Shown here in pieces: positions 31,863 through 36,498 of a stretch of DNA of 64,000 nt. The DNA comes from Escherichia phage teqskov. Below the pieces are notes generated by a model. That model did no database searches and was not told the origin of the DNA. It was given only the letters and a program-made list of their open reading frames with translations. How positions within the stretch are numbered: the first letter of the stretch is position 1; each line of letters opens with the position of its first letter. The stretch lies in sequence record NC_054934.1, one strand, 5' to 3'. The translations under genes and the position numbers were made by a program.

Positions 31863-31886
31863 AGTCTCCTTCGGGAGACTTTTTTC
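31863..31886 (+). terminator. rho-independent terminator
   Basis: agtctccTTCGggagact followed by TTTTTT. Confidence 0.7.
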
Positions 31887-32542: not shown

Positions 32543-32869
32543 AAAGCAGATGTTTTTAATGAAGCTAATTGAAGAATATGCTAATGCAGTTTCTGACTAT
32601 GAGTATTCTGCTCGGGAAAGAGGTACAGCTTTCGCAAAGGAAGAAATGAAAATCATGGTTGATGCTCATACAAAGCTTCAGAATTTTATCGAAAACGTCA
32701 TTTAATGGTTTACAAGTTGGCAAGGTTATGGTATAGTAATCTTGTCAACTGCCAAGGAGAAGAGAATGAAAGTTTTGTTTGTTGTGTATGTGATGATTCA
32801 ATATAATTACCCAATGTTTACTTATAATCTGGTGAACAACATTATTGATATGATTCAGAGGAGTATGTA

Positions 32870-33415
32870 ATGATGGGCGAGGCGAAACGATTAGTATTAG
32901 AAGTTAGTTCACTTTTTGGTGAATTGGCTATAGAAAAAGTAAATAATATGTATCGTTTGACACAAGAAGACGATATGCTATATTTTACTCCTAACGAAAT
33001 TATTCATTTAACCCAAATTGAAAATTCTTATACTGATAAAATTGTAAGCATTAATGATGAGCATAAAATTCATTTTTATTCTTTATGCCCAGGATTTAAC
33101 ATTGAAAGCGAGTCAATATGCTTATCAATTAATAATTGGGATAATTTTATAACTAAGATTAAATATTTTTATTATTCTAATGAAAGAAAACACAGTTTAA
33201 AATGGCTTAAAAATTGCAATGCTATTATTACTAACGCTTGCGATCAGAATGATGAAACTGTTTTAAATGTATCAAAATGTTATGAAGATGGAGATGTCTT
33301 AACTATTCGTCAAATTGATGATTTTCGAGCGCATATTGTCACATTTACCAAAGACGAAGCTATTGCACTAAAGACTTATCTTGATTCTGTTATTCCAACT
33401 ATGATTTCAAAGTGA
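32870..33415 (+). CDS. hypothetical protein, paralog A
   Basis: 181 aa; shares GFNIE[SD]E and C-terminal IRQ...KxEA.A...YL..V.P.M with the next ORF. Confidence 0.5.
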   Translation: MMGEAKRLVLEVSSLFGELAIEKVNNMYRLTQEDDMLYFTPNEIIHLTQIENSYTDKIVSINDEHKIHFYSLCPGFNIESESICLSINNWDNFITKIKYFYYSNERKHSLKWLKNCNAIITNACDQNDETVLNVSKCYEDGDVLTIRQIDDFRAHIVTFTKDEAIALKTYLDSVIPTMISK

Positions 33416-33421
33416 GGAAAT

Positions 33422-33943
33422 ATGTTTATTTCAAGTGGAAGCGGTTTAATTCGTGTTGAATTTAAAAATGACATCTTCCTTAGTCAAGGAGATGATATTA
33501 TTAAAATGAGTTATGACGAAATCAAGAAAATTTGTCATGCTCTTGAAAGTCATGGAAAAGTGAACGCTGTTATTGATATTGGCGATTTATGGGTGACACT
33601 TTATGAAGTATCCGAAGGATTTAACATTGAAGATGAAAATAACATTTTAGCTATTGATAAAAGAAGTGATTTGTTTGATGTATTAAAAGTTTATGAACAG
33701 TCAAATGGCGGAAGAAAAGCTGCATTGATTTATCAAAAACCGCATTCATGTGGAACTGCTTCAATCATTTCAAATATTGAAGATGAAGTTGATACTTATA
33801 TGTGTGTTTTAAAAGCTGGTGGTGACCGTCATCCGGATTTTATTTCTATTCGTCAAAACAATGGAGAAATTTCATTATCAAAATCAGAAGCTGAAGCTAT
33901 GATTAAGTATTTAACAACTGTTACGCCTTCAATGAAAGGATAA
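33422..33943 (+). CDS. hypothetical protein, paralog B
   Basis: 173 aa; same motifs as 32870..33415. Confidence 0.5.
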   Translation: MFISSGSGLIRVEFKNDIFLSQGDDIIKMSYDEIKKICHALESHGKVNAVIDIGDLWVTLYEVSEGFNIEDENNILAIDKRSDLFDVLKVYEQSNGGRKAALIYQKPHSCGTASIISNIEDEVDTYMCVLKAGGDRHPDFISIRQNNGEISLSKSEAEAMIKYLTTVTPSMKG

Positions 33944-33945
33944 TT

Positions 33946-34407
33946 ATGATTATTAATGAAAACTCTTGGCACTATAAATTATTCAAATTGTTTAACGATG
34001 AATGGCAACGACCTAAGACACTATGCGCATATTTTTGGTCTATTGCCATTCCTACATTTTTCGTTTCTATTTTTGGATGTGCTATACTCGTAGGGCTAAC
34101 AATTATTTGTGCAGAAAGCCTACAACGTTGGCTTATTTTTGGTAGTTTATGGACTTTGCTTCCATCAGCATTTATACTTGCGCTTTTGGTTGTTTTACTT
34201 ATTATCGGTTCATTTGTTATTCCTGCACATTTGCGTGAAAAATATAAAGATTATAAATGGAAAAAGGATTATGCTTTACACGTAGAAAATATTGATAGGG
34301 CGTATAAAGGTTTACCTCCTATTCAACCTAAGAAATCGATTATCGTCGAATTTTTAAAAGCTCGTAAAGCTAAAGTATGTCCTGTTATTGAATATAAGGC
34401 TGAATGA
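33946..34407 (+). CDS. membrane protein
   Basis: 153 aa with hydrophobic helices; stop overlaps next ATG. Confidence 0.5.
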   Translation: MIINENSWHYKLFKLFNDEWQRPKTLCAYFWSIAIPTFFVSIFGCAILVGLTIICAESLQRWLIFGSLWTLLPSAFILALLVVLLIIGSFVIPAHLREKYKDYKWKKDYALHVENIDRAYKGLPPIQPKKSIIVEFLKARKAKVCPVIEYKAE

Positions 34408-35417: not shown

Positions 35418-35419
35418 TA

Positions 35420-35444
35420 GGGAGCCTTCGGGCTCCCTTTTTTA
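35420..35444 (+). terminator. rho-independent terminator
   Basis: gggagccTTCGggctccc followed by TTTTTT. Confidence 0.7.
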
Positions 35445-35465: not shown

Positions 35466-35500
35466 GTTTACAAGCATAAAGCTTTGTGGTACTATACAAC
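35466..35500 (+). promoter_or_regulatory. early promoter cassette (PeSL-like)
   Basis: ttttcacaaaatgGTTTACa ... tgGTACTATacaactatcaactgatac. Confidence 0.55.
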
Positions 35501-35529: not shown

Positions 35530-36498
35530 ATGAAAACTGTAACTATCAATAAGGGTATCTACTTCGGTAAAGAAATCTCTGGAACTTTTGAGCTCTTAGG
35601 CGAATGGTTCCCAGATAATGCTCCGGTAGATGCACAAGGAGATGGTAAAGTTTTTGTTGAAATTGACGGTAAGCGTCGCGGTGTTTGGGTTTACAAATCA
35701 GACATTTCATATGATGGTGTAAAAGTTGAAGAAGTTAAAGAATCGTATGAAGATATGAAAACCCGCATTAATAAAAGATTTAATGTTATGGGAATGATGA
35801 CGAATGGTATTATTAATGGAAATATTCGTTCATTAATTATCTCTGGCGCAGCAGGTATCGGTAAAACGTATTCTTTAGATAAAGCTTTAAATAAAGCAAA
35901 TGATATTGGATACATTGAATATAAAAGCATTAACGGTAAAATCTCCGGTATCGGTCTTTATGAACAGCTTTGGAATAATCGTGAAGAGAATTCTGTCCTT
36001 TTGATTGATGATGTGGATGTTTTCTCTGATATGGACATTCTTAATCTTCTGAAAGCTGCTCTGGACACTGGAGAGACCCGTAAAGTCTGCTGGAGCACTG
36101 CATCTTCTTACTTGGAAGAAAAAGGCATTGACCGTGAGTTTGAATTTAAAGGAACGATTGTTTTTATCACAAACGTTGACATTGACCGCGAATTAGACCG
36201 TGGTACTAAACTTGCTCCACATTTACAAGCATTAGTGTCCCGCTCGGTTTATTTGGATTTGGGTGTTCACACTAATGAAGAAATTATGGTCAGGGTTGAA
36301 GATGTTATTCTTTCAACTGACATGATGCAAAAGCGCGGTCTTTCTGATGAAGAAACTTATAAAGCATTATCATGGATGAAAGTCAATGTTAATCGTTTAC
36401 GCAATGTTTCACTGCGTACTGCTCTTTATCTTGCTGACTTTATTATGACCGACAAAAATGGTTGGGAAGAAATTGCTGAGGTTACTCTTCTGAAATAA
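35530..36498 (+). CDS. P-loop ATPase (AAA-like)
   Basis: 322 aa from ATG after SD GGAG; Walker A GAAGIGKT, Walker B VLLIDDVD, sensor-like TIVFITN. Confidence 0.55.
   Translation: MKTVTINKGIYFGKEISGTFELLGEWFPDNAPVDAQGDGKVFVEIDGKRRGVWVYKSDISYDGVKVEEVKESYEDMKTRINKRFNVMGMMTNGIINGNIRSLIISGAAGIGKTYSLDKALNKANDIGYIEYKSINGKISGIGLYEQLWNNREENSVLLIDDVDVFSDMDILNLLKAALDTGETRKVCWSTASSYLEEKGIDREFEFKGTIVFITNVDIDRELDRGTKLAPHLQALVSRSVYLDLGVHTNEEIMVRVEDVILSTDMMQKRGLSDEETYKALSWMKVNVNRLRNVSLRTALYLADFIMTDKNGWEEIAEVTLLK

Follow-up and report, generated by a model that had tools for sequence, protein, structure and literature searches.

The window analysed here is a stretch of 64,000 nucleotides from Escherichia phage teqskov (NC_054934.1), which is a Tequatrovirus (T4-type) genome oriented along early transcription. 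At positions 32870-33943 it carries two adjacent open reading frames (ORFs) on the + strand, named here ORF1 and ORF2, which are present exactly where a sequence-only reading of the same DNA had placed a diverged tandem duplication, directly upstream of a membrane protein and a nucleotidyltransferase (NTase). Judged from their sequences, ORF1 and ORF2 are true paralogs of one narrow Tevenvirinae family, T4_y05I_N/C. The genes and features of the locus are the following.

32709-32737, + strand: promoter-like site of the sigma-70/T4-early type, located after mobD.2a (TTTACA, spacer of 17 nucleotides (nt), TG-extended TATAGT; 10 of 12 matches), a consensus match only

32766-32870, + strand: mobD.2, a hydrophobic protein of 34 amino acids (aa), with a strong Shine-Dalgarno (SD) sequence AAGGAG and a stop codon that overlaps the ORF1 start (TAATG)

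32870-33415, + strand: ORF1, MobD.1, 181 aa, isoelectric point (pI) 5.0, with domains T4_y05I_N and T4_y05I_C

32885-33187, + strand: N-terminal domain of ORF1 (residues 6-106), predicted as two four-strand-plus-helix repeats, type I PC4-like and similar to PUR repeats I-II

33188-33412, + strand: C-terminal domain of ORF1 (residues 107-181), PF24448, a predicted strand-rich unit with a C-terminal helix, ending in ...YLDSVIPTMISK

33422-33943, + strand: ORF2, a MobD.1 paralog of the 'RB32ORF097c' type, 173 aa, pI 4.9, with both Pfam domains

33422-33712, + strand: predicted PUR I-II-like N-terminal domain of ORF2 (residues 1-97)

33713-33940, + strand: C-terminal y05I_C domain of ORF2 (residues 98-173), ending in ...YLTTVTPSMKG

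33946-34407, + strand: basic membrane protein, 153 aa, pI 9.4, PHROG 944, with two hydrophobic segments read as transmembrane (TM) helices

34404-35417, + strand: NrdC.11, an NTase of the Pol-beta superfamily, RlaP family PF10127, whose start overlaps the stop of the membrane-protein gene (ATGA)

35419-35438, + strand: hairpin resembling an intrinsic terminator (8 bp stem with 6 GC pairs, T-run), which closes the unit

The similarity between ORF1 and ORF2 is highly significant and extends over essentially their full length. BLASTP aligns them over 176 columns with 30% identity and 52% positives (50.4 bits, E=5e-13), and the Smith-Waterman score of 128 lies far above that of 2000 shuffled sequences (mean 31.2, standard deviation 5.2, maximum 66; z=18.5). 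The two halves of the proteins are also significant separately, at z=11.6 (N half) and z=8.0 (C half). The motifs that had been read as common to both proteins are indeed shared: GFNIESE at residues 75-81 of ORF1 corresponds to GFNIEDE at residues 66-72 of ORF2, and the C-terminal pattern is IRQ...TKDEAIALKTYLDSVIPTM in ORF1 and IRQ...SKSEAEAMIKYLTTVTPSM in ORF2. Both proteins exceed the Pfam gathering cut-offs of T4_y05I_N (PF24449, 24.9 bits) and T4_y05I_C (PF24448, 27 bits) with full-model coverage. ORF1 scores 136.6 bits with the former (5e-40, model positions 1-98 of 99) and 75.3 bits with the latter (5.1e-21, positions 1-69 of 69), and ORF2 scores 118.4 bits (2.4e-34) and 80.2 bits (1.4e-22), respectively. 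PHROG 1502 is matched over the whole profile (1-178 of 178) by ORF1 (2e-80) and by ORF2 (2.4e-67).

Both genes are under purifying selection, with pairwise ratios of nonsynonymous to synonymous substitution (dN/dS) against their orthologs of 0.19-0.35 for ORF1 and 0.11-0.20 for intact ORF2, and both are therefore constrained coding genes. Unrelated ORFs that resemble each other by chance or composition would have nothing in their favour beyond the low identity and the AT-rich genome; this explanation is ruled out, with a negligible residual probability, by the alignment statistics of the whole proteins and of each half, by the two curated Pfam domains and the PHROG that both proteins match, and by the selection acting on both genes. 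Since the two genes are adjacent on the same strand, 6 nt apart and similar over their full length, their description as tandem paralogs holds. A third paralog was searched for across the whole window and none was found.

ORF1 is the ortholog of T4 MobD.1 (NP_049711 / AAD42593), with 85% amino-acid identity and the same position, preceded by mobD.2. ORF2 corresponds to the gene annotated 'RB32ORF097c' in RB14-type records, and no ortholog of it is present in the T4 reference. T4 has the HNH homing-endonuclease gene mobD in the interval from mobD.1 to nrdC.11, where it exactly replaces ORF2 and the membrane-protein gene (33422-34407 in the window), so that T4 lacks these two genes because mobD occupies their place. 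The insertion site of mobD has been described as nrdC.11/mobD.1 (PMC2988022). The arrival of mobD thus appears to have deleted two operon genes and to have made T4 a natural double knockout.

The relationships within the family were examined by a neighbour-joining tree and an identity matrix, which resolve four or more clades, represented by ORF1 and T4 MobD.1, by a type of about 50% identity found in other Tequatroviruses such as JK45, by the Gaprivervirus orthologs, and by ORF2. None of the MobD.1 clades includes ORF2, which branches outside them and is 27-32% identical to the three other clades; its distance from ORF1 (about 29% identity) is as great as that from the Gaprivervirus orthologs. 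The duplication is therefore old. A recent duplication in situ, considered as the origin of the pair, was rejected on this branching; the paralogy and adjacency of the proposed tandem duplication stand. The second copy, ORF2, may have arrived or moved by recombination.

The five genes mobD.2, ORF1, ORF2, the membrane-protein gene and nrdC.11 appear to be one predicted early transcription unit, with SD sites (GAGG before the ORF2 start) and tight or overlapping junctions. The suggestion that the pair belongs to the same module as the membrane protein and the NTase is borne out by this shared promoter-to-terminator unit and by linkage in five Tevenvirinae genera. The pair had also been placed at the start of the operon; it does lie in the unit, but ORF1 is not the first gene, as mobD.2 precedes it. 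The overlap of the mobD.2 TAA with the ORF1 ATG suggests possible translational coupling. The mobD.2 product, MKVLFVVYVMIQYNYPMFTYNLVNNIIDMIQRSM, is very hydrophobic; the gene is annotated in T4 (AF158101), is a coding sequence of 105 nt in AV120 and lacks annotation in many other records. Two GC-rich hairpins with ...CTTCGG... loops, at 31863-31880 and 35419-35438, scored as terminators on both strands and bracket the region mobD.5-nrdC.11.

The y05I_C domain, the membrane protein and the NTase are linked well beyond the window. Synteny was sampled in 46 viral-contig loci with relatives of the membrane protein, and an NTase was counted when it lay within 3.5 kb. Of the 31 NTase-carrying loci, 29 have a y05I_C gene that stops 5-45 nt short of the membrane gene, and in the other 2 this gene is present in frame-broken form. 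Annotated genomes of Tequatrovirus, Gaprivervirus, Moonvirus, Jiaodavirus and Karamvirus share the order y05I_C, membrane gene, NTase. The number and form of the copies before the membrane gene vary, with two full-length copies in the window type, one in JK45 and VR20, two tandem C-only copies of 78 and 77 aa in Citrobacter phage Moon (L003 4001-4457), one C-only copy with a DUF7189 gene in KpV477, and one C-only copy in Pet-CM3-4. In all annotated arrangements the membrane protein comes next and the NTase follows 0-2 genes beyond. Across genera, these arrangements define an invariant core formed by the C domain, the membrane protein and the RlaP NTase, and the PUR-like N domain is an addition present in some genera. 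With its C-only pair, Moon provides an independent example of two paralogs at this position.

The family is narrow in its distribution. A profile search of 1.84 billion representatives gave only 29 clusters at 50% identity, which comprise a few full-length forms and stand-alone C domains. A repetitive protein of 1572 aa with 12 stretches (P0056) was judged spurious from its sequence. By tblastn, all family members are found in Tevenvirinae, in Tequatrovirus, Gaprivervirus, Moonvirus, Jiaodavirus and T4-like phages of Serratia and Erwinia, and the Karamvirus copy of the y05I_C gene was also read directly. Genes of the ORF2 type (at least 80% identity) occur in about 432 of 50,697 phage records, and the whole family in 718 records.

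Within these limits the family is strongly mosaic. A single gene from metagenome contigs (P0011) fuses an ORF1 N domain to an ORF2 C domain, and AV120 (L007 2094-2636) has an ORF1 of 51% overall identity, of which the 3' part, along with ORF2, matches the window DNA at 97% identity. The domains seem to be exchanged as modules among alleles. JK45 has a single copy of the family, and split, truncated or frame-shifted copies of ORF1, ORF2 or the C-only gene are frequent, as in NR1 (L001 6923-7445), ECO4, T2, fPS-90, L027 and L035. This frequent truncation suggests that the genes are dispensable in the laboratory, although some of these records perhaps contain sequencing errors. ORF1 also evolves faster than its neighbours, with the dN/dS given above against 0.01-0.08 for the NTase.

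Variation of this kind can be read as the product of an arms race, in which the proteins would be counter-defence decoys, that is, acidic nucleic-acid mimics or titrators of a sensor that neutralise host immunity. The acidity of the proteins, the presence or absence of ORF2, the chimeric alleles of the P0011 and AV120 types, at least three divergent MobD.1 clades, the truncations, the faster evolution of ORF1 and the apparently early expression of these accessory genes are all consistent with such a role. NCBIfam and PADLOC scans of the five operon proteins gave no matches, though the PADLOC library covers host defence systems and not phage anti-defence proteins, and literature searches found no described anti-defence relative. 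That the genes keep a fixed order with those of the membrane protein and the NTase points to an internal module and not to a free-standing inhibitor, and we give the decoy explanation a low probability.

Structures of both proteins, whose prediction had been suggested along with the pairwise alignment, were modelled as monomers with AlphaFold2 from an alignment of 22 sequences, and the models have a confident N domain and a low-confidence C domain. The N domain has a predicted local distance difference test (pLDDT) score of about 85-95 in both models (about 90 in that of ORF1) and the order E-E-E-E-H-E-E-E-E-H (E, strand; H, helix). This is the type I PUR/PC4-like arrangement, in which four strands and a helix, a linker and the same elements repeated form one intramolecular domain. 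On these models the N domain folds like Pur-alpha repeats I-II (type I PC4-like / Whirly-like), and the best structural matches are all nucleic-acid binders.

The likeness to the known systems has clear limits. Compared with Pur-alpha (PURA; PDB 3k44/5fgp for repeats I-II, 5fgo/8chw for repeat III), the phage N domain has a similar fold with 4-13% identity in structural alignments, and the phage proteins have no PurA Pfam match at E<=1. The binding face of Pur-alpha is basic, whereas the phage proteins are acidic, and the phage C domain apparently differs by an additional strand, and also by a conserved VIPTMK tail. The single-repeat PC4-like proteins (Bpur 3n8b, PC4/Sub1, YdbC and the T5 PC4 homolog 4bg7) are structural matches to some region of the model and have no sequence relationship to the phage proteins. 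Whirly proteins and trypanosome MRP1/MRP2 (PDB 1l3a, 3n1h, 2gia) are alike at the level of fold only, without a sequence link, and their tetramers form via extra helices that are absent from the phage proteins.

The closest folds, Pur-alpha, PBF-2 p24, PC4/Sub1 and the T5 PC4 homolog, are named transcription regulators, and Pfam names the family 'y05I-like putative transcription factor'. ORF1 and ORF2 could accordingly be viewed as transcription factors that bind single-stranded or double-stranded DNA (ssDNA, dsDNA) of promoter regions, like Pur-alpha, PC4 and Whirly, and modulate host or phage transcription early, when the genes appear to be expressed. The Pfam label was apparently transferred from fold similarity only, and no experiment was found in the literature. 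A Pfam scan of ORF1 and ORF2 detected no helix-turn-helix or other DNA-reading motif, the surface charge is acidic, and the genes are dispensable and often truncated. A role as transcription factors is improbable on this evidence.

The C domain has a pLDDT of about 40-65 in the monomer model, with four or five strands followed by a helix. Proteins that consist of this domain alone exist, about a dozen of 70-87 aa that end in ...YLNSVIPTMK. Single-repeat PC4-like proteins fold only as dimers, and the order of elements, the size and the free-standing existence of the C domain give it a resemblance to them. Low confidence in a monomer model is expected for a domain that requires a partner, but it does not by itself speak for one. 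By analogy, we infer that the C domain may be a dimerisation or partner-binding unit. Pur-alpha itself dimerises through repeat III (PMC7549692), and a 2020 review describes it as the only known protein that joins type I and type II PC4-like domains (PMC7549692). If the inference on the C domain holds, the phage family would be a second case of this combination.

Profile comparisons of the three repeats gave one weak match. With hhalign, repeat I matches the C domain in register (LTQEDD-MLYFTPNEI vs IRQIDD..HIVTFTKDEA; P=0.0016) over a strand, the Q, an acidic turn, a second strand and the start of the helix. No signal was obtained by hhalign between repeats I and II (E 0.24) or between repeats II and III (E 0.12), so that three homologous repeats are not proven by sequence. 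When sequences are ranked by a hidden Markov model (HMM) of the C domain, two neighbouring DUF7189 proteins and 11 sequences of repeat I come out ahead of all 545 decoy ORFs of the window (E 0.004-0.75). DUF7189 (PF23819) in turn weakly matches 5 of 18 C domains and, in ORF2, repeat I (2.3e-4). DUF7189 genes lie immediately upstream of the y05I gene in KpV477 (L005 3314-3505) and VR20 (L004 3775-3990). The DUF7189 proteins may be a further single-repeat relative or a partner.

NrdC.11, the last gene product of the unit, matches PF10127 (RlaP) with 44.7 bits (1.7e-11; cut-off 23) and carries the Pol-beta G[ST]...DxD signature in the sequence GSHLYGTSTPESDVDF. Searched against the PDB, it gave no sequence relative. 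T4 NrdC.11 has been assigned to the PF10127/RlaP family in a 2025 preprint, in which RlaP enzymes of Pseudomonas extend RNA 3'-OH ends by 1-2 nucleotides, with a preference for damaged RNAs, and restore the aminoacylation of over-trimmed tRNA (PMC12776372). No RNA ligase was seen in the operon, and the 'ligase-associated' context of RlaP is not found there.

The fold of the N domain, the resemblances of the C domain and the linkage to an RlaP enzyme can be joined in one explanation. Two copies of the C domain would associate, as they do in PUR repeat III or Borrelia Pur-alpha, and ORF1 and ORF2 would form homodimers and/or a heterodimer bearing two PUR-like nucleic-acid-binding domains. Hetero-pairing has precedents in the proposed Pur-alpha/Pur-beta heterodimer and in the MRP1/MRP2 heteromer. 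By association, such dimers might bind single-stranded RNA (or ssDNA), and the two proteins would be substrate-handling or regulatory subunits of the RlaP module. Through their invariant C-terminal helix and VIPTMK tail, the proteins may dock on the membrane protein, perhaps placing the module at the membrane. Paralogy, family membership, fold and operon, taken jointly, are near certain; the dimerisation and RNA-handling parts are speculative and rather doubtful. As a whole, from paralogy through RNA handling, this is the best explanation, with a probability of roughly 0.4.

Several observations weigh against the RNA-handling explanation. T4 retains MobD.1 and NrdC.11 without ORF2 and the membrane protein, and broken copies of the family genes are frequent in other phages. 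The predicted fold also occurs in SsgA and in DUF4176 type VII secretion chaperones, which have no described nucleic-acid-binding role, and at the level of sequence the phage proteins are linked neither to a solved structure nor to the PurA, Whirly and PC4 families. In hmmscan, no match to PurA, DUF3276 or Whirly was found at E<=1 with the full proteins or at E<=10 with the C domains, and searches of solved structures with a whole-family and a C-domain profile returned noise only (CsoS1D, E 0.32; NMD3, E 0.58). Besides the whole proteins (pI 4.9-5.0), the N domains are acidic as well (domain pI 4.1-6.0), and the conserved polar residues of the sheet are mostly E, D, Q and N and not K, R or aromatic residues; this acidity and this conservation are atypical for binders of the Pur-alpha, Whirly and PC4 types. 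The C domain is modelled with low confidence and apparently has five strands, not four. The linked loci all belong to one subfamily, the Tevenvirinae, and hence their linkage is not independent evidence, and more distant phages encode homologs of the membrane protein without y05I_C or NTase. No publication on the function of the MobD.1 / y05I family was found in literature searches.

Some of the same observations fit another role, which is the main rival of RNA handling. The acidic PUR-like scaffold with its C-terminal helix and VIPTMK tail would be a protein adaptor that binds either a host protein or the basic portions of the two-TM membrane protein that face the cytoplasm, and that controls an early membrane function (exclusion, ion leakage or cross-talk with lysis timing), the NTase being a mere neighbour. 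The strict adjacency of the C-domain gene to the membrane gene and the charge complementarity between acidic proteins and a basic membrane protein favour it. An adaptor of the membrane protein does not account for MobD.1 being kept in T4 despite the loss of the membrane gene, nor for membrane-protein homologs of more distant phages that have no y05I_C partner, and the structural matches to nucleic-acid binders argue for a different function. We consider an adaptor role rather unlikely.

The membrane protein belongs, by its sequence motifs, to a broader, uncharacterised family of phage membrane proteins. Homologs with the motifs NSWHYK, LCPYFW and KARKxKxCP are found in contigs of distant and jumbo phages, and some of them have about 215-225 aa. 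Loci of such homologs without y05I_C or RlaP NTase are L028, L036, L041-L044, L046 and L048-L055.

A bolder form of the RNA-handling explanation would be a viral Pur-alpha architecture, combining the type I two-repeat domain with a dimerising type II repeat, in which diverged paralogs (ORF1/ORF2, or the C-only pair of Moon) heterodimerise, are tethered to the small membrane protein and present damaged RNA 3' ends to NrdC.11. In this full form it is quite unlikely. If true, it would be an unrecognised phage module for RNA-end repair or against nucleases, besides the known Pnk/Rnl system of T4.

Pfam and PHROGs already contain the family, ORF1 has its own gene name in T4, and the pair as such is a correct but ordinary finding. 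What the analysis adds is the predicted PUR/PC4-like fold and the domain logic, a two-repeat domain followed by a single repeat, for T4 MobD.1 and about 700 'hypothetical proteins'. It also defines the conserved early module of y05I_C protein, membrane protein and RlaP NTase, a setting in which NrdC.11 can be tested; the repair of RNA 3' ends by its bacterial relatives is a recent finding. In lacking ORF2 and the membrane protein, T4 amounts to a natural partial knockout.

The setting of the unit is a known hyperplastic region of T-even genomes. The gene order in the window is regB (27760), vs.1, vs, tk.4 (macro domain), tk (30333), rI.1, rI, rI.-1 and a terminator, and continues with the small ORFs mobD.5-mobD.2a, the ORF1/ORF2 region, nrdC.11, and nrdC.10 onward. 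A stretch of 4.1 kb around the pair is 97-98% identical to hundreds of T-even phages of Escherichia, Shigella and Yersinia. Public records systematically mislabel MobD.1 as 'molybdopterin-guanine dinucleotide biosynthesis protein MobD', a confusion of gene names; they also give the name 'thioredoxin' to nrdC.10 and nrdC.11 and 'prohead core scaffold protein' to a T2 fragment. The gene nrdC.10 (35530-36498, + strand) has its own early-type promoter-like site at 35467-35495, directly after the operon terminator. NrdC.10 is an AAA/STAND-like P-loop ATPase by weak Pfam matches to AAA_14, AAA_22 and nSTAND3, and it belongs to PHROG 1250.

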